In this document: positions 185 through 16,567 of the stretch, in pieces | How positions within the stretch are numbered: the stretch's first letter is position 1 | Layout: the number at the start of each line of letters is the position of its first letter | Assembly: GCA_000004985.1 (NCBI GenBank) | Contig: GG738974.1 | From: Naegleria gruberi | Lineage: Eukaryota | Length of the DNA: 16,567 bases | Strand: one strand, 5' to 3' | Translations under genes and position numbers: made by a program | The notes under the pieces: generated by a model | The model's database searches: none | What the model saw: only the letters and a program-made list of their open reading frames with translations | Told to the model about the DNA's origin: nothing

Positions 185-345
185 TTGTGTCGATAGGGTT
201 AATGCTAAACCTCGAGTGAAAACTTGTGGACCACGCGAGCTTGGTCGAACCTTCAACGATCCTCGCGTGAATCATACTACCGTAATTGTACGTAATTATC
301 ATGAAAATTAAATCTACAACCCTAACTGCAATAGCTAATATCAAT
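185..345 (+). repeat. Copy 1 of a ~150-bp dispersed repeat with an internal hairpin (stem cacgcgag, 22-nt loop, ctcgcgtg) and a B-box-like GGTTCGACC on the complementary strand
   Basis: The core at 211-275 is about 90% identical to the reverse complement of 6738-6800. Similarity decays towards 185 and 345. Confidence 0.6.
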
Positions 346-524
346 TAAGGAGTGCTATTCAATGATGTTTTTTTATTTGTTGTACTTCTTGCTGTTGTAG
401 CATAGAGGTACAACGCTGGATATGGAGGTACATGACCAGTTTTCGATTCTTGGAGATCGAATTATCTTATTTTATTTTTGGCCATTCACCCGCTCATTTT
501 ATTTCGTCATTCCTGATGGTGGAT

Positions 525-553
525 TGACGCTTTTTTTGACGTCATCGCTGACG
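525..553. promoter_or_regulatory. Three TGACG motifs at exact 12-bp spacing (525, 537, 549); the middle one is part of the perfect palindrome TGACGTCA (537-544). This is a candidate bZIP (CRE/as-1-like) binding module
   Basis: Read directly from the sequence: TGACGcttttttTGACGtcatcgcTGACG. It lies about 410 bp upstream of the minus-strand NuoB-type gene start. Confidence 0.3.
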
Positions 554-589
554 ATTTTGCATAAAGTTACTCCAAAGTTAATTATCGAT

Positions 590-665
590 ATTCTGTTGTG
601 TTCTACTTGATGTTGTAATGTGTTGTTTATTTGTTGTTGTTTGTTTTGTGTTGTTTTGATGATGA
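590..665. repeat. GT-rich low-complexity tract, (TTG)n/(TGT)n-like
   Basis: tgttgtgttctacttgatgttgtaatgtgttgtttatttgttgttgtttgttttgtgttgttttgatgatg. Confidence 0.6.
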
Positions 666-745
666 AAATCAGTGAAGGAGGAGGTGACGTATTTCAGACT
701 TGTGAATTTTTTTGAAAATTTTAAAAAAAAAAATACAAATTTCAC

Positions 746-764
746 AAGCTTGACTATCAAGCTT
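746..764. other. Perfect 8-bp-arm hairpin AAGCTTGA-cta-TCAAGCTT, 18 bp downstream of the stop of the minus-strand gene at 782 and next to an 11-A run (722-732)
   Basis: Read directly from the sequence. The arms are exact reverse complements, and each contains a HindIII site. Confidence 0.5.
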
Positions 765-781
765 AACATCATGTCTGGAAA

Positions 782-1165
782 TTATTCTTTGATCAAACTA
801 TTGATTGCCTTCCGAACACTTTCTTTATCCCATCCCCTTGCTTCAAAGAACTTTCTACATACTGTTCTTTGATCAGTTGTGAGTTCTCCTATAGGTTTCT
901 TGAAGTGATGATGTGCTAACAATTCCAAGCACTGTTTTTGAGTCACATTACCAATAAGCATTTTGATAATGTCTGGAGGAATTGAATAAGTTATACCATT
1001 TACGGTAGTGTTGAATGCAAGCCCTGAAAATAGATGAGCAAACCTTTTTGTGAGGTCAGTTAATACCTTTTCACATTGGATAATGGCATTGATGAACTCT
1101 GGAAAAGCTTTGTCCTTATCTATCAAATCAAAGATGTAATCGACATGCTCTGGAACAATCACAAT
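782..1165 (-). CDS. C-terminal 127 codons of a large protein truncated by the assembly gap. Function unknown; a weak resemblance to the hAT-family C-terminal dimerisation region is noted
   Basis: ORF ...PEHVDYIFDLIDKDKAFPEFINAIIQCEKVLTDLTKRFAHLFSGLAFNTT...IPPDIIKMLIG...WDKESVRKAINSLIKE* with a TAA stop at 782-784. The reading frame is open all the way into the N run. Confidence 0.4.
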   Translation of the reverse strand: MVIVPEHVDYIFDLIDKDKAFPEFINAIIQCEKVLTDLTKRFAHLFSGLAFNTTVNGITYSIPPDIIKMLIGNVTQKQCLELLAHHHFKKPIGELTTDQRTVCRKFFEARGWDKESVRKAINSLIKE

Positions 1166-4100
1166 NNNNNNNNNNNNNNNNNNNNNNNNNNNNNNNNNNN
1201 NNNNNNNNNNNNNNNNNNNNNNNNNNNNNNNNNNNNNNNNNNNNNNNNNNNNNNNNNNNNNNNNNNNNNNNNNNNNNNNNNNNNNNNNNNNNNNNNNNNN
1301 NNNNNNNNNNNNNNNNNNNNNNNNNNNNNNNNNNNNNNNNNNNNNNNNNNNNNNNNNNNNNNNNNNNNNNNNNNNNNNNNNNNNNNNNNNNNNNNNNNNN
1401 NNNNNNNNNNNNNNNNNNNNNNNNNNNNNNNNNNNNNNNNNNNNNNNNNNNNNNNNNNNNNNNNNNNNNNNNNNNNNNNNNNNNNNNNNNNNNNNNNNNN
1501 NNNNNNNNNNNNNNNNNNNNNNNNNNNNNNNNNNNNNNNNNNNNNNNNNNNNNNNNNNNNNNNNNNNNNNNNNNNNNNNNNNNNNNNNNNNNNNNNNNNN
1601 NNNNNNNNNNNNNNNNNNNNNNNNNNNNNNNNNNNNNNNNNNNNNNNNNNNNNNNNNNNNNNNNNNNNNNNNNNNNNNNNNNNNNNNNNNNNNNNNNNNN
1701 NNNNNNNNNNNNNNNNNNNNNNNNNNNNNNNNNNNNNNNNNNNNNNNNNNNNNNNNNNNNNNNNNNNNNNNNNNNNNNNNNNNNNNNNNNNNNNNNNNNN
1801 NNNNNNNNNNNNNNNNNNNNNNNNNNNNNNNNNNNNNNNNNNNNNNNNNNNNNNNNNNNNNNNNNNNNNNNNNNNNNNNNNNNNNNNNNNNNNNNNNNNN
1901 NNNNNNNNNNNNNNNNNNNNNNNNNNNNNNNNNNNNNNNNNNNNNNNNNNNNNNNNNNNNNNNNNNNNNNNNNNNNNNNNNNNNNNNNNNNNNNNNNNNN
2001 NNNNNNNNNNNNNNNNNNNNNNNNNNNNNNNNNNNNNNNNNNNNNNNNNNNNNNNNNNNNNNNNNNNNNNNNNNNNNNNNNNNNNNNNNNNNNNNNNNNN
2101 NNNNNNNNNNNNNNNNNNNNNNNNNNNNNNNNNNNNNNNNNNNNNNNNNNNNNNNNNNNNNNNNNNNNNNNNNNNNNNNNNNNNNNNNNNNNNNNNNNNN
2201 NNNNNNNNNNNNNNNNNNNNNNNNNNNNNNNNNNNNNNNNNNNNNNNNNNNNNNNNNNNNNNNNNNNNNNNNNNNNNNNNNNNNNNNNNNNNNNNNNNNN
2301 NNNNNNNNNNNNNNNNNNNNNNNNNNNNNNNNNNNNNNNNNNNNNNNNNNNNNNNNNNNNNNNNNNNNNNNNNNNNNNNNNNNNNNNNNNNNNNNNNNNN
2401 NNNNNNNNNNNNNNNNNNNNNNNNNNNNNNNNNNNNNNNNNNNNNNNNNNNNNNNNNNNNNNNNNNNNNNNNNNNNNNNNNNNNNNNNNNNNNNNNNNNN
2501 NNNNNNNNNNNNNNNNNNNNNNNNNNNNNNNNNNNNNNNNNNNNNNNNNNNNNNNNNNNNNNNNNNNNNNNNNNNNNNNNNNNNNNNNNNNNNNNNNNNN
2601 NNNNNNNNNNNNNNNNNNNNNNNNNNNNNNNNNNNNNNNNNNNNNNNNNNNNNNNNNNNNNNNNNNNNNNNNNNNNNNNNNNNNNNNNNNNNNNNNNNNN
2701 NNNNNNNNNNNNNNNNNNNNNNNNNNNNNNNNNNNNNNNNNNNNNNNNNNNNNNNNNNNNNNNNNNNNNNNNNNNNNNNNNNNNNNNNNNNNNNNNNNNN
2801 NNNNNNNNNNNNNNNNNNNNNNNNNNNNNNNNNNNNNNNNNNNNNNNNNNNNNNNNNNNNNNNNNNNNNNNNNNNNNNNNNNNNNNNNNNNNNNNNNNNN
2901 NNNNNNNNNNNNNNNNNNNNNNNNNNNNNNNNNNNNNNNNNNNNNNNNNNNNNNNNNNNNNNNNNNNNNNNNNNNNNNNNNNNNNNNNNNNNNNNNNNNN
3001 NNNNNNNNNNNNNNNNNNNNNNNNNNNNNNNNNNNNNNNNNNNNNNNNNNNNNNNNNNNNNNNNNNNNNNNNNNNNNNNNNNNNNNNNNNNNNNNNNNNN
3101 NNNNNNNNNNNNNNNNNNNNNNNNNNNNNNNNNNNNNNNNNNNNNNNNNNNNNNNNNNNNNNNNNNNNNNNNNNNNNNNNNNNNNNNNNNNNNNNNNNNN
3201 NNNNNNNNNNNNNNNNNNNNNNNNNNNNNNNNNNNNNNNNNNNNNNNNNNNNNNNNNNNNNNNNNNNNNNNNNNNNNNNNNNNNNNNNNNNNNNNNNNNN
3301 NNNNNNNNNNNNNNNNNNNNNNNNNNNNNNNNNNNNNNNNNNNNNNNNNNNNNNNNNNNNNNNNNNNNNNNNNNNNNNNNNNNNNNNNNNNNNNNNNNNN
3401 NNNNNNNNNNNNNNNNNNNNNNNNNNNNNNNNNNNNNNNNNNNNNNNNNNNNNNNNNNNNNNNNNNNNNNNNNNNNNNNNNNNNNNNNNNNNNNNNNNNN
3501 NNNNNNNNNNNNNNNNNNNNNNNNNNNNNNNNNNNNNNNNNNNNNNNNNNNNNNNNNNNNNNNNNNNNNNNNNNNNNNNNNNNNNNNNNNNNNNNNNNNN
3601 NNNNNNNNNNNNNNNNNNNNNNNNNNNNNNNNNNNNNNNNNNNNNNNNNNNNNNNNNNNNNNNNNNNNNNNNNNNNNNNNNNNNNNNNNNNNNNNNNNNN
3701 NNNNNNNNNNNNNNNNNNNNNNNNNNNNNNNNNNNNNNNNNNNNNNNNNNNNNNNNNNNNNNNNNNNNNNNNNNNNNNNNNNNNNNNNNNNNNNNNNNNN
3801 NNNNNNNNNNNNNNNNNNNNNNNNNNNNNNNNNNNNNNNNNNNNNNNNNNNNNNNNNNNNNNNNNNNNNNNNNNNNNNNNNNNNNNNNNNNNNNNNNNNN
3901 NNNNNNNNNNNNNNNNNNNNNNNNNNNNNNNNNNNNNNNNNNNNNNNNNNNNNNNNNNNNNNNNNNNNNNNNNNNNNNNNNNNNNNNNNNNNNNNNNNNN
4001 NNNNNNNNNNNNNNNNNNNNNNNNNNNNNNNNNNNNNNNNNNNNNNNNNNNNNNNNNNNNNNNNNNNNNNNNNNNNNNNNNNNNNNNNNNNNNNNNNNNN

Positions 4101-5706
4101 NNNNNNNNNNNNNNNNNNNNNNNNNNNNNNNNNNNNNNNNNNNNNNNNNNNNNNNNNNNNNNNNNNNNNNNNNNNNNNNNNNNNNNNNNNNNNNNNNNNN
4201 NNNNNNNNNNNNNNNNNNNNNNNNNNNNNNNNNNNNNNNNNNNNNNNNNNNNNNNNNNNNNNNNNNNNNNNNNNNNNNNNNNNNNNNNNNNNNNNNNNNN
4301 NNNNNNNNNNNNNNNNNNNNNNNNNNNNNNNNNNNNNNNNNNNNNNNNNNNNNNNNNNNNNNNNNNNNNNNNNNNNNNNNNNNNNNNNNNNNNNNNNNNN
4401 NNNNNNNNNNNNNNNNNNNNNNNNNNNNNNNNNNNNNNNNNNNNNNNNNNNNNNNNNNNNNNNNNNNNNNNNNNNNNNNNNNNNNNNNNNNNNNNNNNNN
4501 NNNNNNNNNNNNNNNNNNNNNNNNNNNNNNNNNNNNNNNNNNNNNNNNNNNNNNNNNNNNNNNNNNNNNNNNNNNNNNNNNNNNNNNNNNNNNNNNNNNN
4601 NNNNNNNNNNNNNNNNNNNNNNNNNNNNNNNNNNNNNNNNNNNNNNNNNNNNNNNNNNNNNNNNNNNNNNNNNNNNNNNNNNNNNNNNNNNNNNNNNNNN
4701 NNNNNNNNNNNNNNNNNNNNNNNNNNNNNNNNNNNNNNNNNNNNNNNNNNNNNNNNNNNNNNNNNNNNNNNNNNNNNNNNNNNNNNNNNNNNNNNNNNNN
4801 NNNNNNNNNNNNNNNNNNNNNNNNNNNNNNNNNNNNNNNNNNNNNNNNNNNNNNNNNNNNNNNNNNNNNNNNNNNNNNNNNNNNNNNNNNNNNNNNNNNN
4901 NNNNNNNNNNNNNNNNNNNNNNNNNNNNNNNNNNNNNNNNNNNNNNNNNNNNNNNNNNNNNNNNNNNNNNNNNNNNNNNNNNNNNNNNNNNNNNNNNNNN
5001 NNNNNNNNNNNNNNNNNNNNNNNNNNNNNNNNNNNNNNNNNNNNNNNNNNNNNNNNNNNNNNNNNNNNNNNNNNNNNNNNNNNNNNNNNNNNNNNNNNNN
5101 NNNNNNNNNNNNNNNNNNNNNNNNNNNNNNNNNNNNNNNNNNNNNNNNNNNNNNNNNNNNNNNNNNNNNNNNNNNNNNNNNNNNNNNNNNNNNNNNNNNN
5201 NNNNNNNNNNNNNNNNNNNNNNNNNNNNNNNNNNNNNNNNNNNNNNNNNNNNNNNNNNNNNNNNNNNNNNNNNNNNNNNNNNNNNNNNNNNNNNNNNNNN
5301 NNNNNNNNNNNNNNNNNNNNNNNNNNNNNNNNNNNNNNNNNNNNNNNNNNNNNNNNNNNNNNNNNNNNNNNNNNNNNNNNNNNNNNNNNNNNNNNNNNNN
5401 NNNNNNNNNNNNNNNNNNNNNNNNNNNNNNNNNNNNNNNNNNNNNNNNNNNNNNNNNNNNNNNNNNNNNNNNNNNNNNNNNNNNNNNNNNNNNNNNNNNN
5501 NNNNNNNNNNNNNNNNNNNNNNNNNNNNNNNNNNNNNNNNNNNNNNNNNNNNNNNNNNNNNNNNNNNNNNNNNNNNNNNNNNNNNNNNNNNNNNNNNNNN
5601 NNNNNNNNNNNNNNNNNNNNNNNNNNNNNNNNNNNNNNNNNNNNNNNNNNNNNNNNNNNNNNNNNNNNNNNNNNNNNNNNNNNNNNNNNNNNNNNNNNNN
5701 NNNNNN
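1166..5706. other. Assembly gap (4541 N)
   Basis: N run in the sequence. Confidence 1.
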
Positions 5707-5719
5707 TCTGCACCCTTTT

Positions 5720-6517
5720 TCAACTTTCAGAGTTAATTTCTTGCAACTTTTCTATCTGCTCTTGAAGTAATTCCTTCACCTTCACAGGAACTGATTCAAG
5801 GTCATTTTTGCCAAATAGCTGTGTTTTAATGGTACGTACTGTTCTGTTAATAGCATCAATATTGCTAACTGCAATTCGCATATCAGGATCATTTGTTATT
5901 GACTTTCGTTTTCTAAATTTTCTTCCCGTGATACTAGGATCACTTTTTACTGCCTCAACCATTTTTTCCTTCATCTTCTTAGGTTGGGTACTTGTACGTA
6001 AATGACAATGTTCATGATCACCATTGAAACCAAAAATATAATTGGTAACTTTGTTGCCATCAACAACTTGTTCTTCTGACTTATAACAATATACCTTTGA
6101 GCTACAATCAATAATTTTAGACAACATATTATTACAAACATTGCAAACCCTATGCTTGTTTGTAAAGTGAGGAAATGATTTGGCAAATGGATCGTTTGTT
6201 TTTATGGTACTAAGGTTGGAGCTTACATTTTCAGAACAAACTTCACACTTTTTAAATCCTTGACAAGAACCCATACGATATTGATTGTATACAACACCAT
6301 TGATTGTTACTGAAAATGGTTTTAATTTTTGGAAACCATTAAAATGGGTTCCAAAATTCAAGTCTTCTCTTAAAGATGGGACCGTTCCTGATAGACAAGT
6401 TACATGATAAAACATCTTGTCCTCTGGCATTCTGTTAATAAACTTAATGTCTTCAACTGTTGTAACGTTGTCCTTATTTGCAAACAACCATTGCCCTGGG
6501 GAGAATCTTGGAGCCAT
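5720..6517 (-). CDS. Hypothetical 265-aa Cys/His-rich protein with a C2H2/BED-like zinc-finger motif (CEVCSENV...HFTNKH) and further CxxC and HxHCH clusters
   Basis: ATG-initiated ORF MAPRFSPGQW..., far longer than any antisense ORF over the same region. It shares the CxVCxENV motif with the neighbouring 6963-7730 gene. Confidence 0.5.
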   Translation of the reverse strand: MAPRFSPGQWLFANKDNVTTVEDIKFINRMPEDKMFYHVTCLSGTVPSLREDLNFGTHFNGFQKLKPFSVTINGVVYNQYRMGSCQGFKKCEVCSENVSSNLSTIKTNDPFAKSFPHFTNKHRVCNVCNNMLSKIIDCSSKVYCYKSEEQVVDGNKVTNYIFGFNGDHEHCHLRTSTQPKKMKEKMVEAVKSDPSITGRKFRKRKSITNDPDMRIAVSNIDAINRTVRTIKTQLFGKNDLESVPVKVKELLQEQIEKLQEINSES

Positions 6518-6700
6518 TTTTTTTGTGCAGAAATTGATAAAATAAGGCGGGAAAAAAATCTTTTGTAAACAATCAGTTTAAGGTTTGCAAAAAAAACTTA
6601 ACATTTAGACGGGGATCGAACTTGCTCCAATACCATGTGTTGCACAATGTCTGTCACCTGAACTACCAATGATTACACATTTAGGTGAATTTTTATTGCA

Positions 6701-6830
6701 TAGTTGGATGGTTGAAATTAAGATAATTAAGGTCAAAAGATTCGCGCGAGGATTGTTGTGAGTTCGATCAAGCTCGCGTGGTTCACAAGTTTTCACTCGA
6801 GGTTTGACAGCTACCCGTGTCGATATCCTC
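6701..6830 (-). repeat. Copy 2 of the ~150-bp dispersed repeat, inverted relative to copy 1
   Basis: The reverse complement of 6738-6800 aligns to 211-275 at about 90% identity. It has the same cacgcgag...ctcgcgtg hairpin and a B-box-like GAGTTCGATC. Confidence 0.6.
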
Positions 6831-6962
6831 GTACTTCCTAGGTGTCCTATTGCGATGATTCATTGGTTTTATTATACGATGTTATAATATTGAGATTGAT
6901 TTTGTAGAGAATGATTAGTTAGATTTAGAACAGAAAATGTTGTAAAGCATTAGTAGTTTAGT

Positions 6963-7730
6963 TTAATGATTGTTTGCAGGCCTGTATGCAATCTTTCCTC
7001 GCATTAGTGGACGTTTCTCCTCAACCAAATATTTGGAGAATGAAACACAATGACCTTGTTTTACATGATGTTCAAAATCATTGTCACTAATTACTTCATA
7101 AACATTTTCTTTACAAACAGCACAAAACGAAACTCCTTTCGAAACATGTCTAAAAGCAGTAGACTTCTTCAATGGACATTCATATTCCCAATCACAATTC
7201 TCAATAAATTGTCTGTCCTTATTCTTTCTAAATTTTGATCCTAAAGGTCCAGATTCTTCTTTAATTATTTTCGAAAGTGGTAATTCTTGTGGAAATTTGT
7301 TTTGTAAATGGATGACTCTCCTTCTCATGACATGCATCCAATTCTTGACATTTAAACTTGCCGAATAATTTGGAAAGTAATAAAGTACAAGTGGTTTCCA
7401 CAAAAGTGTCTGAGCAAGTGCAGTTTCGTTTTCTTTATACTGATCTTTGACCGATACAATCCTACTTTCAAGGTCAAGTTGCAACAATTCTTGTTTTCTC
7501 TTTGCAATGGCCTCCACTTTTTCAACAGTCAAATCAAAAATCATTTCCAATAAATATTCATCACTTCTCGCAAAAGAATTCAAATCTCCAATTGGTAAAT
7601 ATTGTGCAATTATTAAAATTAATTCCGTGCTGAGAGTTTCTTTAAAGATGTTGTGTTTTGTGGAGGGAAGAGAGGACAAGTCATCATCGGCTTCATTATT
7701 CGAAACTCGAGAGAAGATCTTTTTGAACAT
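6963..7730 (-). CDS. Hypothetical 255-aa protein with an F-box-like N-terminal segment (LSTELILIIAQYLPIGDLNSFARSDEYL) and a C-terminal C2H2/BED-like zinc finger (CAVCKENV x10 HHVKQGH)
   Basis: ATG-initiated ORF MFKKIFSRVS... It shares CxVCxENV and F.H....HxC spacing with the 5720-6517 protein. It is divergently oriented to the 8022 gene. Confidence 0.5.
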   Translation of the reverse strand: MFKKIFSRVSNNEADDDLSSLPSTKHNIFKETLSTELILIIAQYLPIGDLNSFARSDEYLLEMIFDLTVEKVEAIAKRKQELLQLDLESRIVSVKDQYKENETALAQTLLWKPLVLYYFPNYSASLNVKNWMHVMRRRVIHLQNKFPQELPLSKIIKEESGPLGSKFRKNKDRQFIENCDWEYECPLKKSTAFRHVSKGVSFCAVCKENVYEVISDNDFEHHVKQGHCVSFSKYLVEEKRPLMRGKIAYRPANNH

Positions 7731-8021: not shown

Positions 8022-9509
8022 ATGTATTTGTGTGGTCGTTTGCCAGTTATTAGTGATTTCTTTGAGGCGTGTTTTGCTGAAGGAACAAAAACATCTTCCC
8101 AAGATAGTGGGTCCCAATTTTTCAACACTGAAGAAGGTNNNNNNNNNNNNNNNNNNNNNNNNNNNNNNNNNNNNNNNNNNNNNNNNNNTCTATTAGAAAG
8201 AATGGATTCCGTAAAAGTTTCTTTTGAGAATTTTGAGAGAACATCTGCTCTCATGGTTTTACTTGCATTTAACTATATTGATAAACCATCCCTTGATCAA
8301 GTTGAACAATGCATTGAACATTGTGACTTGATACTCTATAACTCAGAAAAGCTAGAACCGAGTGATCTTACTTGCATGGCCATGATTCTCTTTAATATCT
8401 ATAAGAAACAACCTTGTTTAGAATTGCTTGGAGATGCTTTCATACTTTCCAGCTTTGCAAATGTAGTTGATCCTCTGGGAGCTGAAACTCTCATGTTACA
8501 GATAGGAAATTCATTCATTGTAAAATTCAAACAGACATTTTCTCCACTGTTATCCCAACTTGTAGAGTTTCTTTCTAGAAGGATATCAACTTCAAATTTG
8601 GGGTCATTGTTGTTCTCTTCTGACACTTTTTGTGAAATACTGTATAGTAATATTACAAGAAACCTAAGACCAGATATTATTCCTTCATCTTCTTTCAAGT
8701 TTGGTGAAGATTTAAAATGTGTATCACGAAAAGAGTTCAAATCACAAAATTTCCTTGAGGATTTATTACGAATTGGAAACTCTAACGACTCAAACCAGCA
8801 GATGTTAAGTTTGTACAAAACCATCAACAGTACATTCCTTTCAATTGATTCTTTCCAAACCAAAGCTCACAAACTGGCATTAGTTTGTCAACTTGTTGTC
8901 AAGAATAAGTTAGAAATGGATAGAAATGAGTTGTTGAATGCTTTGTTAGTCTGTATTCATAATTTCCATCTTGTTTTTGAAACACAGTCCTTTTCACACA
9001 TTTCCCACTCTTCAGAATCGATGCCTGTTAGTGGAAGCAATACTCTCTGCTTCGATTTGTATTACTTTTCTGTTTTTCAATTTTACAACTTGTTGACAGA
9101 CCTCACTACTCTCAAATATCCTGCAGCTGAGAATTGTTTCTATTTCAAAAATATCAACAATAGATTCTTACAGTTTTTATGGAAGAAAGTTATTGAGAAC
9201 TTACAACTTCTTCAAAACAAGATTAGTGCAAGGCAGCAACCCAAAGATTTTAAAGATCACTATTTAACATCTATTCTGTCATCATCTTTTGAGGACACAC
9301 ATAAACACCAGTTGGAGGAGATTAAATCAAATATTGAACAGATTATGATCCTAGCAGAAGAAAATCAAAGGACAATTGATCTTCAAATAGAGAAGGCCAA
9401 GGACAGATTAAACCATTTGAATCAATCGAATCTTACTTCTCAAGAGATTCGAATCATTAAAAGCTTTGGTACAGAAATGCAATCTTTAACTGGGATTGAA
9501 TATGAGTAA
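8022..9509 (+). CDS. Paralog A of an unrecognised conserved protein family (495 aa as assembled; interrupted by the 50-N gap at 8139-8188)
   Basis: ATG-to-TAA ORF. About 88% aa identity to the 15154+ ORF over ~380 aligned residues, with synonymous differences present. Confidence 0.7.
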   Translation: MYLCGRLPVISDFFEACFAEGTKTSSQDSGSQFFNTEEGXXXXXXXXXXXXXXXXXLLERMDSVKVSFENFERTSALMVLLAFNYIDKPSLDQVEQCIEHCDLILYNSEKLEPSDLTCMAMILFNIYKKQPCLELLGDAFILSSFANVVDPLGAETLMLQIGNSFIVKFKQTFSPLLSQLVEFLSRRISTSNLGSLLFSSDTFCEILYSNITRNLRPDIIPSSSFKFGEDLKCVSRKEFKSQNFLEDLLRIGNSNDSNQQMLSLYKTINSTFLSIDSFQTKAHKLALVCQLVVKNKLEMDRNELLNALLVCIHNFHLVFETQSFSHISHSSESMPVSGSNTLCFDLYYFSVFQFYNLLTDLTTLKYPAAENCFYFKNINNRFLQFLWKKVIENLQLLQNKISARQQPKDFKDHYLTSILSSSFEDTHKHQLEEIKSNIEQIMILAEENQRTIDLQIEKAKDRLNHLNQSNLTSQEIRIIKSFGTEMQSLTGIEYE

Positions 9510-9842: not shown

Positions 9843-11747
9843 NNNNNNNNNNNNNNNNNNNNNNNNNNNNNNNNNNNNNNNNNNNNNNNNNNNNNNNNNN
9901 NNNNNNNNNNNNNNNNNNNNNNNNNNNNNNNNNNNNNNNNNNNNNNNNNNNNNNNNNNNNNNNNNNNNNNNNNNNNNNNNNNNNNNNNNNNNNNNNNNNN
10001 NNNNNNNNNNNNNNNNNNNNNNNNNNNNNNNNNNNNNNNNNNNNNNNNNNNNNNNNNNNNNNNNNNNNNNNNNNNNNNNNNNNNNNNNNNNNNNNNNNNN
10101 NNNNNNNNNNNNNNNNNNNNNNNNNNNNNNNNNNNNNNNNNNNNNNNNNNNNNNNNNNNNNNNNNNNNNNNNNNNNNNNNNNNNNNNNNNNNNNNNNNNN
10201 NNNNNNNNNNNNNNNNNNNNNNNNNNNNNNNNNNNNNNNNNNNNNNNNNNNNNNNNNNNNNNNNNNNNNNNNNNNNNNNNNNNNNNNNNNNNNNNNNNNN
10301 NNNNNNNNNNNNNNNNNNNNNNNNNNNNNNNNNNNNNNNNNNNNNNNNNNNNNNNNNNNNNNNNNNNNNNNNNNNNNNNNNNNNNNNNNNNNNNNNNNNN
10401 NNNNNNNNNNNNNNNNNNNNNNNNNNNNNNNNNNNNNNNNNNNNNNNNNNNNNNNNNNNNNNNNNNNNNNNNNNNNNNNNNNNNNNNNNNNNNNNNNNNN
10501 NNNNNNNNNNNNNNNNNNNNNNNNNNNNNNNNNNNNNNNNNNNNNNNNNNNNNNNNNNNNNNNNNNNNNNNNNNNNNNNNNNNNNNNNNNNNNNNNNNNN
10601 NNNNNNNNNNNNNNNNNNNNNNNNNNNNNNNNNNNNNNNNNNNNNNNNNNNNNNNNNNNNNNNNNNNNNNNNNNNNNNNNNNNNNNNNNNNNNNNNNNNN
10701 NNNNNNNNNNNNNNNNNNNNNNNNNNNNNNNNNNNNNNNNNNNNNNNNNNNNNNNNNNNNNNNNNNNNNNNNNNNNNNNNNNNNNNNNNNNNNNNNNNNN
10801 NNNNNNNNNNNNNNNNNNNNNNNNNNNNNNNNNNNNNNNNNNNNNNNNNNNNNNNNNNNNNNNNNNNNNNNNNNNNNNNNNNNNNNNNNNNNNNNNNNNN
10901 NNNNNNNNNNNNNNNNNNNNNNNNNNNNNNNNNNNNNNNNNNNNNNNNNNNNNNNNNNNNNNNNNNNNNNNNNNNNNNNNNNNNNNNNNNNNNNNNNNNN
11001 NNNNNNNNNNNNNNNNNNNNNNNNNNNNNNNNNNNNNNNNNNNNNNNNNNNNNNNNNNNNNNNNNNNNNNNNNNNNNNNNNNNNNNNNNNNNNNNNNNNN
11101 NNNNNNNNNNNNNNNNNNNNNNNNNNNNNNNNNNNNNNNNNNNNNNNNNNNNNNNNNNNNNNNNNNNNNNNNNNNNNNNNNNNNNNNNNNNNNNNNNNNN
11201 NNNNNNNNNNNNNNNNNNNNNNNNNNNNNNNNNNNNNNNNNNNNNNNNNNNNNNNNNNNNNNNNNNNNNNNNNNNNNNNNNNNNNNNNNNNNNNNNNNNN
11301 NNNNNNNNNNNNNNNNNNNNNNNNNNNNNNNNNNNNNNNNNNNNNNNNNNNNNNNNNNNNNNNNNNNNNNNNNNNNNNNNNNNNNNNNNNNNNNNNNNNN
11401 NNNNNNNNNNNNNNNNNNNNNNNNNNNNNNNNNNNNNNNNNNNNNNNNNNNNNNNNNNNNNNNNNNNNNNNNNNNNNNNNNNNNNNNNNNNNNNNNNNNN
11501 NNNNNNNNNNNNNNNNNNNNNNNNNNNNNNNNNNNNNNNNNNNNNNNNNNNNNNNNNNNNNNNNNNNNNNNNNNNNNNNNNNNNNNNNNNNNNNNNNNNN
11601 NNNNNNNNNNNNNNNNNNNNNNNNNNNNNNNNNNNNNNNNNNNNNNNNNNNNNNNNNNNNNNNNNNNNNNNNNNNNNNNNNNNNNNNNNNNNNNNNNNNN
11701 NNNNNNNNNNNNNNNNNNNNNNNNNNNNNNNNNNNNNNNNNNNNNNN
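9843..11747. other. Assembly gap (1905 N), probably hiding the 5' part of the retroelement (gag / ITR)
   Basis: N run in the sequence. Confidence 1.
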
Positions 11748-11769
11748 TATGCTGAGTCCAATGTAATAG

Positions 11770-12945
11770 AGATGGAAACAGTCAACAATATTGAACCCAA
11801 TAAACATTGTACCCAAGAAGGGTTCGGATCAATTTCGCTTTATTCTAGACCTAAGGAAGGTCAATTTAGGAATAAAGGACAGTTCCTTCAAGATGGACAA
11901 CATTCAAAGATGTTTGAAATTTGTTCAGAAGGGAATGTGGGCAACAAAGATAGACCTGAAGAAGGGTTACTTCCACGTTCCAATCAGGGAGAAACATCGC
12001 AATCTTCTTGGATTCCGGTACAAGGACAAGATTTATCAGTTCAAATGCCTACCGTTTGGGCTAAGTCAAGCTCCCAGAAATTTCACAAAGATTATGAAAG
12101 AGTTGGTGACCAAGTGGAGAAAGCAGGGTATTCTAGTATTTATTTACATAGACGATATTTTGATTCTAAACAACAGCAAAGAAACTACCCAACTGCTCAC
12201 AGACATAGTCATGAAGGATCTGGAGACATTGGGATGGATAATCCAGAAAGAGAAAAGCGTATTAGCACCGTGTCAACACATAGAGTTTCTCGGTCTGGAA
12301 CTGGATCTCGTACTTGGCCTTGTGAAAATCCCAGTCAACAAACAATCAACAGCCTTAGAAATGATTCAAAAATTCTTATCAGCAAACCAACGGAACAGGT
12401 TTGTAGCATGCAAGAAAGTAGCACAATTCCTCGGAAGGATGGAATTTCTAACTCTTTCAAACCACTACTTTGCTCCCTTTCTTGCTCGTCTTCGGAAGGA
12501 TATGGTGAAAGTAGTAAACGACAAATCTTGGCACGCATCAATGAGAATATTCAGAGGTGCAGCAAAGGATCTAAATATTTTGAAAGATCTGATTCAGGAA
12601 AACAGTGGAATTCCCTTCGAACTGAATTCAATGAACCCAATTCGAGTGAATTCAGATGCCTGCCCAACAGGCTATGGAATTCACGCAGAGTCAACCATTA
12701 CAATTGGAAGATTCACTTCCTCAGAACACATCAATGTGAAAGAGTTAAAAACACTCCTCATTTTCTTCACACAAGCAGATCTGTTAAACCTTTATGGTCC
12801 TGGACAAGCATTCGAAATCAGAGGCGACAATGTTACGGCAATTTCCTATATAAGGAGAGGTTACGGAGTCATAGAAGAACTCTTGTTTCTTAAAAGAAAA
12901 CCAACAATAAATAAACTAATGGATATTGTCCCGAGAAAGGAGTAG
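11770..12945 (+). CDS. Reverse transcriptase-RNase H polyprotein segment (apparently intact, ~390 codons) of a DIRS-like retroelement
   Basis: A continuous frame runs from just after the in-frame TAA/TAG at 11764-11769 to the stop at 12945. YIDD lies at 12145-12156. There is an RNase H DAS..G.G motif. The track starts this ORF at a TTG (11791). Confidence 0.8.
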   Translation, partial: RWKQSTILNPINIVPKKGSDQFRFILDLRKVNLGIKDSSFKMDNIQRCLKFVQKGMWATKIDLKKGYFHVPIREKHRNLLGFRYKDKIYQFKCLPFGLSQAPRNFTKIMKELVTKWRKQGILVFIYIDDILILNNSKETTQLLTDIVMKDLETLGWIIQKEKSVLAPCQHIEFLGLELDLVLGLVKIPVNKQSTALEMIQKFLSANQRNRFVACKKVAQFLGRMEFLTLSNHYFAPFLARLRKDMVKVVNDKSWHASMRIFRGAAKDLNILKDLIQENSGIPFELNSMNPIRVNSDACPTGYGIHAESTITIGRFTSSEHINVKELKTLLIFFTQADLLNLYGPGQAFEIRGDNVTAISYIRRGYGVIEELLFLKRKPTINKLMDIVPRKE

Positions 12946-13400
12946 TAGACAAGTGGCGAGCGGCAAGAGCTTCTTGTCTTTGATAAGGTTGTAAAGATTT
13001 CACATCCTTATGTCTAGTCCCTATAATAATATCCTGAGTAGGAATTCCCTTGATAATACTCTCAGTAGTTGCACCAATACGTAAACTGTGACCAGAAACA
13101 GTGATTTCTGAATCAACAAAGATCATAGCATTCTTGATAAGTTGAGAAACATCGTCAGTGTTGAAGAAAATATTGTCTTGCAATGAAAACAATGGTGAAT
13201 CTGCTGTTTTGAAATGCTGTAGTGTCCTTGTAATCAAAAAGCAATTTCACTGGATACACTGAAGGATTTTCAAGATGCTTGTCAAAAGTAATCGGCTTTT
13301 CTAGTAGAAATCTGTTTTGTGACCACTGAGATCTAATTTGATGTTACCATTTCTAAGCTTAGTAACATAACCCCACTTGAGAGTAAGAGGAATCTCGGTA
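12946..13400 (-). pseudogene. Tyrosine recombinase (phage-integrase/DIRS type) C-terminal catalytic domain, frameshifted
   Basis: The minus ORF 12890-13237 contains GHSLRIGATTESIIKGIPTQDIIIGTRHKDVKSLQPY (the HxxR...Y box II with catalytic Tyr). Upstream, in another frame, are LTLKWGYV (box I-like) and SGHKTDFY (KT lysine region), followed by a stop. Confidence 0.6.
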
Positions 13401-14061
13401 TTCATTTATTTAGACGATATCTTAGTGGTAAATCATTCAAAAGATCAGTTGATCTTAGACAGAGATATAGTTCTAAAGGATAGAAGAGTTTGGATTTCTC
13501 ATTCAAAAAGACAAATGTTGTTTAAATCCAACTCAATTATTAGAATACCTAGGAGTTTTGTTAGACTTTCATCAAGGTTTGGTAAAAATTCCAGAAGACA
13601 AAAAGATTACAACCTTAGAATTCATAGAGGAGCTACTCAATGCTTCCCAGAAACCGCTTTATGTTCCATGCAAGAGAGTTGCCAAGTTCCTAGGAAATTT
13701 GGAATTTCTAACAATTGCCAACAAGTACCTTTCACCATTCATGTGTCGTCTTCGAAAGAACATGATTTCAGCAGTATCAGGAAGAAGTTGGCATGCATCG
13801 ATGAAAATTCACAAAGGTGCATTCAAGGATTTATTGATTCTAAGGGAGTTAATTCAAAAGAACAATGGTAATTCCAGAATGGAGCTCCTCGATTTGGTGG
13901 CCTCTACTCTTAAAGCTATTAAAGAAGAGAAAAAGTATCACAAGAAGGATGCTTTTAATCAAACCAATATCCGAATTATGGAACAAATTCGAAGGAACGA
14001 CGTTCATAATTGCTCATCTGGATGGAAACTTATACTTCAAACCAGAGATTTAGGATGTTAG
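13380..14061 (+). pseudogene. 5'-truncated, frameshifted second RT(-RH) copy, about 55% aa identity to the first
   Basis: GISVFIYLDDILVVNHSKDQ (YLDD at 13407-13418), then ...DIVLKDRRVWISHSKRQML. A frame switch near 13540-13560 continues as LVKIPEDKKITTLEFIEELL...SWHASMKIHKGAFKDL, collinear with RT1. The RNase H motifs are degenerate. Confidence 0.7.
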
Positions 14062-14305: not shown

Positions 14306-15037
14306 TTACTTTCCCAGTAATTCATGCACACATCCCCAAAAAGTTGCTGATTCTTCCATGGAAAATTTCAAGTATTGCATACTAAGTTGTTGTTTTTCGA
14401 TTTCAGAAATGGTGAGCACTTGCTTTTCAATCTTTTTTTGAATGGATTTATAATGGAATCCAATTGTTTTTTCTTTAACCATAACAGAAGCTCCAGATTG
14501 TACTTTGGCATCAGCATCACGTTGTTGAACAATTCTGTTGTTGGTGTTATTTACACTAGAAATAATTTGATTTCTCTCATCGGAAGTAATTTCCCTTACA
14601 TAACAAATACACTTTGTTGTTCCGTTCTTGTCTTGAAATTCCAAGGTAAACTGCTCACTATTATTTGTTCGGCATATTTTTCTATTATATGTATTCACAC
14701 TTCCACTGGGCTCAGTGTTGGTTGGAATTTTATAAACCTCACTGCAGCCGCCAAATGAAGTCTCAAATATGTAATAATATTCGCCACTAACCACATAAAA
14801 CATTGCATGGTTGATAGAAGTGTTGTTGTTTGCCGGTTTGATGGATGGACAAACAAAGCCTGATGGAAAAAACTTCTTCAAATACAAACAAAAGCCTAAA
14901 CAATTACATCCAATAGAGGTGGGCTCGTATCCATCCACATATAAATTAGTGTTAAGTGTGTTATTGTATGGAAATTTCACCAAGAGTTCCTTATGTTTTT
15001 GATTAAAACGGTCCCTAGCGATATCCTCTGGATCCAT
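14306..15037 (-). CDS. Hypothetical 243-aa Cys- and Asn-rich protein
   Basis: The track ORF (14306-15052) begins at a TTG. The first ATG is at 15035-15037 (MDPEDIARDRF...). This ORF is longer than the antisense ORF. It is divergent from paralog B, with 116 bp between the two ATGs. Confidence 0.45.
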   Translation of the reverse strand: MDPEDIARDRFNQKHKELLVKFPYNNTLNTNLYVDGYEPTSIGCNCLGFCLYLKKFFPSGFVCPSIKPANNNTSINHAMFYVVSGEYYYIFETSFGGCSEVYKIPTNTEPSGSVNTYNRKICRTNNSEQFTLEFQDKNGTTKCICYVREITSDERNQIISSVNNTNNRIVQQRDADAKVQSGASVMVKEKTIGFHYKSIQKKIEKQVLTISEIEKQQLSMQYLKFSMEESATFWGCVHELLGK

Positions 15038-15116
15038 TGCTGTCCGGAACAATAATATTATTTACAGATTTTTTTTGTATTTTTTGCCTTCAATAAATTC
15101 AATATTTCATGTTGTA

Positions 15117-15153: not shown

Positions 15154-16567
15154 ATGGAATTATATGATAGTTCGCCAGATATTAATCCCTTTGATGCCTA
15201 CTTTGCGGTAACAAAAACACCTGCTGAAGATACTGGGGCCCAATTTTTGCAGCACATGAAGAAGGTTTATAGTGATGGATTTGTTAATGGATTTGTTAAT
15301 GGCTACAACTACAGGCAATCATCCGAACCAAAGGATCACAACATATTCCATAGCCACACTAACTATGTTTTGAATCAATCTCTTTCTGTGGTTATCAAGG
15401 CCCAGAGGATACCACAAGCTGGTATTATCACCAAGATATTTTCTCAAGAGCTCCAATCATTTTTCCCGGTTCTGTCCAGTCTTGCCAAATTGATTGAATC
15501 AAACTCACTTGGCAATTATGTAGCATCTTCTGAAGAGCAGGCAATTCTATGCTCACTTGCTGAATGCCTACTCTCAACTGAAATATCAAAACGGGATGCA
15601 ACAGCCATAAAACCAACAAACCTATTAGAAAGAATGAATGCTGTAAAAGTTTCTTTTGAGAATTTTGAGAGAAAATCTGCTCTTATGGTTTTACTTGCAT
15701 TTAACTATATTGATAAACCATCTCTTGATCAAGTTGAACAATGCATTGAACATTGTGACTTGATGCTCTATAACTCAGACAAGCTAGAACCAAGTGATCT
15801 TACTTGCATGGCCATGATCCTCTTTAATATTTATAAGAAACAACCTTGTTTAGAATTGCTTGGAGATGCTTTCATACTTTCCAGCTTTGCAAATGTGGTT
15901 GATCCTGTAGGTGCGGAGACTCTTATGGTGCAGATAGGAAATGCATTCATTGTAAACTTCAAACAGACATTTTCTCCACTGTTATCCCAGGTTGCAGAGT
16001 TTCTTTCTCGTAGAATATCTACTTCAAATTTGGGCTCACTGTTGTTCTCGTCTGACACCTTTTGTGAAATACTGTACAGTAATATTATCAGAAACTTAAG
16101 ACCAGAAATTATTCCATCATCTACTTACAAGTTTGGTGAAGATTTAAAATGTCTGTCACGAAAAGAGTTCAAATCGCAATATTTCCTTGAAGATTTATTA
16201 CGAATTGAGAGCTCTAAAGACTCAAACGAGCAGATGTTGAGCTTGTATAAAACAATCAACAATACGTACCTTTCAAATGATTCATCCCAAACCAAAGCTC
16301 ACAAACTGGCATTAGTTTGTCAACTGGTTGTCAAAAATAAGTTAGATATGGATAGAAATGAGTTTTTGAATGCTCTGTTGGTCTGTATTCATAATTTCCA
16401 TCTAGTTTTTGAAACAGAGCTGATTTCACACGTTTCTCGCTCTTCAGAATCGATGTCTGTTAGTGGAAGCAACACTGTCTGCTTCGATCTGTATTACTTT
16501 TCTGTTTTTCAATTACACGAGTTATTGACTGACCACTCTAATCTCAAATATCCTGCAGCTGAGAATG
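15154..16567 (+). CDS. Paralog B of the same unrecognised family, 3'-truncated by the window end
   Basis: ATG at 15154; the ORF is open to the end of the window. It contains ~110 residues (YSDGFVNGFVNG...KPTN) that in paralog A fall inside the 50-N gap. Confidence 0.7.
   Translation, partial: MELYDSSPDINPFDAYFAVTKTPAEDTGAQFLQHMKKVYSDGFVNGFVNGYNYRQSSEPKDHNIFHSHTNYVLNQSLSVVIKAQRIPQAGIITKIFSQELQSFFPVLSSLAKLIESNSLGNYVASSEEQAILCSLAECLLSTEISKRDATAIKPTNLLERMNAVKVSFENFERKSALMVLLAFNYIDKPSLDQVEQCIEHCDLMLYNSDKLEPSDLTCMAMILFNIYKKQPCLELLGDAFILSSFANVVDPVGAETLMVQIGNAFIVNFKQTFSPLLSQVAEFLSRRISTSNLGSLLFSSDTFCEILYSNIIRNLRPEIIPSSTYKFGEDLKCLSRKEFKSQYFLEDLLRIESSKDSNEQMLSLYKTINNTYLSNDSSQTKAHKLALVCQLVVKNKLDMDRNEFLNALLVCIHNFHLVFETELISHVSRSSESMSVSGSNTVCFDLYYFSVFQLHELLTDHSNLKYPAAEN
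15277..15300 (+). repeat. Perfect 12-bp tandem duplication (ggatttgttaat x2) inside paralog B, encoding GFVN-GFVN
   Basis: Read directly from the sequence. Confidence 0.8.

Follow-up and report, generated by a model that had tools for sequence, protein, structure and literature searches.

A putative Mutator-type transposon beside a lineage-specific F-box gene on a small scaffold of Naegleria gruberi

The stretch of DNA analysed here (the window; 16,567 nucleotides, ∼34% G+C) is the whole of a small scaffold of the protist Naegleria gruberi, contig GG738974.1 of assembly GCA_000004985.1. It carries two small open reading frames (ORFs), here called P1 (265 aa) and P2 (255 aa), which lie on the minus strand and are separated by a spacer of 445 bp. 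A first-pass annotation, made from the sequence without database searches, had described them as a tandem pair of small adaptors sharing a zinc-finger-like signature, CxVCxENV, of the BED or C2H2 type, and had pointed to an F-box-like N-terminus in P2. The strand, positions, and spacing of the two ORFs are as it described; the relationship between them is not. P1 lies inside, and P2 outside, an element bounded by terminal inverted repeats (TIRs) and a target-site duplication (TSD). We regard it as probable that P1 is the 5' ORF of an element of the Mutator superfamily, most likely of the MuDRF type, and that P2 is an unrelated host F-box gene adjoining it. The locus is an ordinary transposon insertion beside a lineage-specific F-box gene, with nothing outside known kinds. 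Its features are collected in Table 1. The region as a whole is repeat-rich and poorly assembled, with three runs of N (1166-5706, 8139-8188, and 9843-11747).

Table 1. Positions of the element, of P1 and P2, and of their parts in the window
Feature	Position	Strand	Basis or remark
Left TSD copy, GTGTCGATA	187-195	+	Identical to 6817-6825
Left TIR, starting GGGT, with internal hairpin	196-287	+	82% complementary to 6725-6816 over 92 nt
Transposon ORF fragment, C-terminal, 127 aa plus stop	782-1165	-	Frame open up to the gap edge
Assembly gap of 4541 N within the transposon	1166-5706		N run
P1, 265-aa ORF, putative 5' gene or exon of the transposon	5720-6517	-	ORF call
P1 GCM-like (WRKY-GCM1 superfamily) candidate double-zinc module, residues 68-172	6002-6316	-	Ligand framework collinear with 1ODH
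Right TIR (5' end relative to P1)	6725-6816	-	Inverted-repeat search
Right TSD copy, GTGTCGATA	6817-6825	+	137 bp from the P2 stop codon
P2, single-exon 255-aa host gene, 'predicted protein' of N. gruberi	6963-7730	-	100% identity, full length, to annotated protein P0001
P2 C-terminal five-cysteine module, residues ∼174-232	7035-7211	-	14-homologue alignment
Conserved helical middle region of the P2 family, residues ∼100-150	7281-7433	-	Alignment and AlphaFold2 model
P2 F-box-like domain, residues ∼30-66	7533-7643	-	

Two reading frames and the transposon end between them

Neither P1 nor P2 can be a chance open frame. Stop codons occur at a frequency of 0.07 per codon, and the probability of meeting no stop in 265 codons, the length of P1, is ∼5e-9. 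The motifs that had been read from the two proteins were all located: in P1, CEVCSENV at residues 91-98, FPHFTNKH at 115-122, CNVC at 125-128, then C138 and C144, and HEHCH at 168-172; in P2, CAVCKENV at 203-210 and FEHHVKQGHC at 219-228. The F-box-like string LSTELILIIAQYLPIGDLNSFARSDEYL is likewise present in P2, at residues 33-60 and so not at the very start of the protein, where it had been placed. Clustering of Cys and His is non-random in both proteins: the pattern Cx2C-x10..25-Hx3..5H turned up in 0.6% of P1 shuffles and in 0.25% of P2 shuffles.

That P1 and P2 are tandem paralogues, members of a lineage-specific family of small adaptors with a shared BED/C2H2-like finger, is suggested by the C-x-V-C-x-E-N-V followed by histidines in both, by sub-threshold matches of the P2 family to C2H2-clan fingers and ZBED1, and by the AlphaFold2 (AF2) model of P2, in which a hairpin and then a helix surround the CxxC. 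As a common signature, however, CxVCxENV is at chance level. A match at six of the eight positions occurred somewhere in 5% of P1 shuffles, and within the P2 family only C..C...V is conserved, the ENV part being present in no members but the four closest paralogues of N. gruberi. Moreover, no homology between the two proteins was detected by BLASTP (E=0.06 with 8/18 identities, not significant), by hhalign of the 14-member P2 family against P1 (4% probability), or with a hidden Markov model (HMM) of the P2 family, which with all filters off gave P1 -3.4 bits, a lower score than unrelated ORFs in the window obtained. Elsewhere, P2 homologues do without a P1-like neighbour: those of N. lovaniensis and of one environmental contig have a single exon and are surrounded by ordinary genes (such as cathepsin C, NuA4, and RhoGAP). 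We consider common descent of the two ORFs very improbable.

The layout of the repeats also separates them. A repeat search found two inverted arms of ∼92 nt, 82% complementary and both beginning with GGGT, at 196-287 and 6725-6816. They share a 22-nt core, AAACCTCGAGTGAAAACTTGTG (207-228 and 6784-6805), which occurs exactly twice in the window against an expectation of 0. Directly outside both arms stands a perfect 9-bp direct repeat, GTGTCGATA on the plus strand, with only these two occurrences in the window. TIRs together with a 9-bp TSD are the signature of a cut-and-paste element, which here measures 6,621 bp, the gap of 4,541 N included. The ATG of P1 lies 207 bp inside the right TIR, and the frame runs inwards to a stop codon 14 nt before the gap. 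On the far side of the gap a second ORF fragment emerges on the same strand and ends with a stop at 782-784, 494 bp in from the left TIR; searches of Pfam and the PDB matched it to nothing. P2 is not part of the element: 137 bp separate its stop codon from the right TSD. The 445-bp spacer thus holds the end of the transposon that carries P1, and what had been called a tandem pair is a juxtaposition. The element would have inserted beside P2, making the 9-bp duplication; the 'pair' would then be a product of the insertion, and the eight-residue Cys motif shared by the neighbouring ORFs a coincidence.

Some smaller features of the TIRs were also noted. A hairpin with 18-nt arms, CACGCGAGCTTGGTCGAA and TTCAACGATCCTCGCGTG, and a 2-nt loop lies inside each of them (232-249/252-269 in the left TIR and the corresponding stretch of 6725-6816 in the right); it may serve in transposase binding or have a structural role. 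Just inside the TIRs, at 400-470 and 6610-6700, stretches such as GTAGCATAGAGGTA and AGTTCGATCCCC had, by eye, the look of a tRNA D-arm or T-arm. ARAGORN and Rfam found nothing there, and a tRNA-like or SINE-like (short interspersed nuclear element) sequence beside the TIRs was dropped as a candidate. A metagenome scan with the TIR core returned two near-identical organelle-like contigs, L001 (12188-12212) and L002 (698-722), in which the matching 25-27 nt are the 3' end of a group I intron (RF00028). The contigs have no other similarity to the element and no group I intron was detected in the window; the likeness is probably a coincidence.

Zinc ligands of P1 and the assignment of the element

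A word-indexed search with P1 returned nothing, not even P1 itself, so P1 is not an annotated N. gruberi protein. Its absence from the annotation might fit the skipping of repeat regions when genes are annotated. An exhaustive phmmer search of 1.84 billion representatives gave nothing at E<=1e-3. There was no match of P1 to the FAR1, FLYWCH, WRKY, or Mutator-like element (MULE) profiles, and neither P1 nor the 782-1165 fragment matched a transposase profile. The zf-BED and zf-C2H2 profiles, which had been proposed as a check on the shared finger, gave no significant match for P1 or P2. Nor did Pfam scans with the P2 paralogues or the family consensus yield a significant zinc-finger, transposase, or GCM match.

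The order of Cys and His in P1 is that of the zinc ligands of a GCM (glial cells missing) domain. The framework of P1, C85-x5-C91-x2-C94-x30-C125-x2-C128-x9-C138-x29-H168-x-H170, is collinear with all eight ligands of mouse GCMa (PDB 1ODH; C76-x5-C82-x3-C86-x26-C113-x2-C116-x8-C125-x26-H152-x-H154), at near-identical spacing. An hhalign comparison of the two proteins places every metal ligand in register over 114 columns, yet with a probability of 3.8% (P 0.011). Around the ligands they have three short motifs in common, SCxGxxxC, CxxCNxxLxxI.C, and [FY]IF..G[ED]H[DE]H.

In GCM1 domains the core cysteines are set apart by an inserted Cys4 zinc ribbon (Babu et al. 2006, PMC1702500). P1 would correspondingly have a core zinc site made of C85, C138, H168, and H170, interrupted by a Cys4 ribbon of C91, C94, C125, and C128. 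CEVCSENV had been paired with FPHFTNKH as a finger; read as a GCM domain, it would most naturally be the first knuckle of the inserted ribbon, with CNVC at 125-128 as its partner. The HEH of P1 would supply the HxH of the core site, and FPHFTNKH would not be a ligand pair. An extra cysteine, C144, gives a WRKY-like C-x5-C-x23-H-x-H spacing.

MULE transposases usually bind DNA through an N-terminal domain of the WRKY-GCM1 superfamily, and stand-alone WRKY-GCM1 ORFs are found in some Mutator elements, such as Mutyl (Babu et al. 2006, PMC1702500). MULEs have TSDs of 8-11 bp and long TIRs, and Spectre MULEs carry a separate zinc-finger ORF (Dupeyron et al. 2019, PMC6446971). The closest description is that of MuDRF, a distant Mutator/MuDR branch, which encodes one protein that joins a GCM DNA-binding domain to a DDE transposase. 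TSDs of 9 bp flank the MuDRF copies, a full-length copy is present in N. gruberi, and sequences are deposited in Repbase (Cantu et al. 2011, PMC3164196).

The Mutator criteria seen in the element of the window are its ∼92-nt TIRs and its 9-bp TSD. With MULEs in general, including Mutyl and Spectre with their precedent for a separate finger ORF, it shares a zinc-finger module at the 5' end, boundaries formed by TIRs, and a TSD within the 8-11 bp range; it differs from them in the missing family profile matches of P1. With MuDRF, compared by its published description, it shares the 9-bp TSD, the TIRs, the GCM-type framework in the N-terminal part, and the host species, and it differs in that P1 stops before the gap at 1166-5706, which hides any DDE domain. 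Because of the GCM-type framework, the host, and the TIRs and TSD, P1 is most likely the DNA-binding N-terminus of a transposase of the MuDRF kind. The earlier suggestion of a transposon origin by way of a BED domain stands in so far as P1 is transposon-encoded, the domain most likely being of the GCM/WRKY type of a Mutator-like element and not the BED of a hAT-like one. By analogy with Mutator-like transposases, the P1 module may bind the terminal or subterminal repeats of its own element and bring the DDE domain there. The DDE catalytic domain would be located in the 4.5-kb gap, and the 782-1165 fragment would be the C-terminal end of the coding region.

A regular expression for the framework matched P1 and GCMa and 0/300,000 composition-preserving shuffles of P1, with spacing tolerances that were modest and set after P1 had been seen. 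That order of events weighs against the assignment, and several other points do so too. At the level of residues the similarity of P1 to GCMa, an animal transcription factor and not a protist transposon product, does not reach significance (BLASTP E 0.76; 17% of shuffles attain the Smith-Waterman score). Searches of Pfam and of PDB sequences with P1 gave only noise, without a GCM_motif match even at E<=10, and an AF2 model built without an alignment was unusable, with a predicted local distance difference test (pLDDT) score of 36. No homologue of P1 was found, and its assignment rests on ligand spacing, short motifs, and the literature report. The catalytic DDE domain, which would define the superfamily, is hidden in the 4541-N gap. 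The element is known from one copy here, and its two ends lie on different contigs joined only by scaffolding. Finally, with its stop before the gap, P1 may be a separate small ORF, an exon before an intron, a decayed copy, or an artefact of gap-edge sequence.

The first of these options leads to a different account of P1, as a stand-alone orphan gene of the host, or as a small ORF that is complete in itself, has an accessory or regulatory role, and is not part of a transposase, with the repeats either incidental or belonging to a non-autonomous element that captured it. P1 does have its own ATG and a stop before the gap, and it has no homologue, transposase or otherwise. The lone WRKY-GCM1 ORFs of Mutyl and the separate finger ORF of Spectre MULEs are precedents. 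However, the perfect 9-bp TSD at the ends of the inverted repeats puts P1 inside a mobile unit, a second ORF fragment emerges from the gap on the same strand, and MuDRF is described as encoding GCM and DDE domains in a single protein. We find a stand-alone P1 unlikely.

The element could also belong to another superfamily with 8-9-bp duplications, such as Merlin, or to an undescribed one, the clusters of P1 then forming a zinc module unrelated to GCM. TSDs of 9 bp also occur outside Mutator, the catalytic domain is out of sight, and no profile or pairwise score backs GCM. Against this stand the collinearity of eight ligands with GCM together with the shuffling result, the length of 6.6 kb and TIRs of ∼90 bp, which fit MULEs, and the fact that a GCM-bearing Mutator with 9-bp TSDs has already been reported from N. 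gruberi. Membership of another superfamily appears quite improbable, and a Mutator-type element remains the preferred assignment.

Apart from the GCM-like module, residues 6-84 of P1 (6265-6502) bear a weak likeness to the C-terminal part of enterovirus VP2 (E 0.5-1; PxQW..N...T....IN..P.D.MF.H). The likeness falls short of significance, and Pfam does not back it.

The P2 family, its F-box and its five-cysteine module

Searching first with P2 itself turned up three close paralogues in N. gruberi and one environmental relative; with a profile the set grew to 15 proteins, which come from N. gruberi, N. lovaniensis, and ENA/JGI contigs. The family alignment comprises 14 homologues. There is no synteny with the locus of the N. 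lovaniensis homologue; a 495-aa ORF lies next to the gene at both loci, and the two are unrelated.

The F-box-like motif that had been noticed in P2 is borne out by profile-profile comparison, by near-threshold Pfam scores, and by the UniRef naming of two N. lovaniensis homologues as 'F-box domain-containing protein'. P2 itself has no Pfam F-box match. One homologue, P0007, reaches 20.1 bits against a gathering score of 20.5, and for the N-terminal part of the family consensus the scores are 20.5 bits for F-box, which equals the cut-off, and 21.2 against 24.3 for F-box-like. Several other members have sub-threshold F-box-type matches at the same columns. When the N-terminal columns of the family were compared by hhalign with eleven classical F-boxes, whose sequences were entered by hand, the probability was 93.3% (E 2.7e-7) over 35 columns of the H1-H3 helix core. 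Residues ∼30-66 of P2 also superpose on Skp1-bound F-boxes and form the three helices of the F-box fold. The F-box of the P2 family is real but divergent. Compared with known F-box proteins (Skp2, Fbw7, Cdc4, and FBXL2; PF00646 and PF12937), with which it shares this profile alignment and superposition, it scores at or under threshold, and in P2 it has LSTE in place of LPxE, with loss of the Pro. In addition, a helical insert of ∼40 residues separates the F-box core from a conserved WKPLV motif, and the C-terminal partner is a family-specific five-cysteine (Cys5) module instead of WD40, leucine-rich repeats, or another named domain.

Between the F-box and this module lies a conserved middle region with six invariant residues (Q107, W111, F119, N130, R137, and R138), for which AF2 predicts helices at 100-118 and 131-145 (pLDDT ∼70-78). 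A motif at residues ∼100-150, YFPNYSASLNVKNWMHVMRRR, resembles the LPPYSPDLNPIE..W..lKr of Tc1/IS630 (DDE_3) transposases. The middle region (YFPNYSASLNVKNW...RRR) was considered as a DDE_3 relic and rejected: 3/14 members match at E 0.002-0.13, the consensus does not match DDE_3, and a PDB profile search returned no transposase.

The C-terminal module contains all five cysteines of P2, in the pattern NC179-x5-C185P ... C203-x2-C206 ... C228. They are invariant in 14/14 homologues, which leaves the finger proposed for P2 in a divided position, with its cysteines conserved and its histidines variable. H222 is present in 11/14 members, H227 in 10/14, while three members lack any His in this stretch. 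AF2 predicts a β-hairpin, a helix, and a strand at a pLDDT of ∼80. The module has no significant Pfam, PDB-sequence, or fold match. A Foldseek comparison of the P2 model with PDB structures produced no match at E<0.6, and sequence and profile searches of the PDB gave chance-level matches only, among them the TRAF6 RING (0.13) and RGS22 (0.013).

The module might nevertheless be a degenerate finger of the BED/C2H2 type, with C203, C206, H222, and either H227 or C228 as ligands. Its C-x2-C-x15-H-x5-C fits the BED signature Cx2CxnHx3-5[H/C], the aromatics W181 and Y183 lie upstream, and the predicted topology of a hairpin holding the CxxC knuckle, followed by a helix with His in most members, is that of BED (ZBED1, 2CT5) and C2H2-clan fingers. 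Weak matches to such fingers also recur in the family, to zf-C2H2_12 (E 0.011-0.21), zf-C2H2_2 (0.023), and ZBED1 (0.32). At E 0.01-0.3 these are all below threshold, however, and there is no fold match. The loss of His in 3/14 homologues, combined with two further invariant cysteines upstream, C179 and C185, points to an all-Cys ligand set. A degenerate finger is on balance doubtful.

P2 is described most economically as an F-box substrate receptor whose Cys5 module is unclassified and probably binds zinc. As such it would presumably dock on Skp1 in an SCF ubiquitin ligase, while the middle helices and the Cys5 module would recognize the substrate.

For annotation, the gain is an unrecorded, probable Mutator-type element at 196-6816 with exact ends, and a description for a hypothetical protein: P2 and its paralogues can be listed as F-box proteins that carry a Cys5 module specific to their family. 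Biologically the locus is of limited interest, because Mutators with GCM fingers have been described before from N. gruberi and F-box families confined to one lineage occur commonly among eukaryotes. Two minor leads for domain discovery are left, the Cys5 module and the highly divergent GCM-like finger. We would only tentatively, at somewhat less than even confidence, propose both that the Cys5 module is a hitherto undescribed zinc-binding domain through which F-box proteins recognize substrates, known so far from Naegleria and related environmental contigs alone, and that P1 holds an extremely divergent GCM-type domain of a protist Mutator. If the latter is true, P1 extends the pool of transposons from which the DNA-binding domain of animal GCM transcription factors is thought to derive, and the ligand framework of GCM survives the loss of sequence similarity.

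Remaining features of the scaffold

The right part of the window contains further repeats and ORFs. Next to the 1.9-kb gap, 11748-14061 holds fragments of a retroelement. An ORF at 11791-12945 (+) encodes a reverse transcriptase (RVT_1, E 9e-25), and more reverse-transcriptase-like pieces follow at 13377-14061 (+). On the opposite strand, at 12890-13237, there is a weak tyrosine-recombinase-like ORF (Phage_integrase, E 0.021). Together these look like rearranged debris of a DIRS-like element. A 248-aa ORF at 14306-15052 (-) has only a sub-threshold match to ATG27 (E 8e-4; 19.8 bits against a cut-off of 27). Next to P2, a 495-aa ORF at 8022-9509 (+) is interrupted by the 50-N gap and has no Pfam match; part of it is duplicated in a direct repeat of 300 nt with 94% identity (8190-8489 and 15622-15921).

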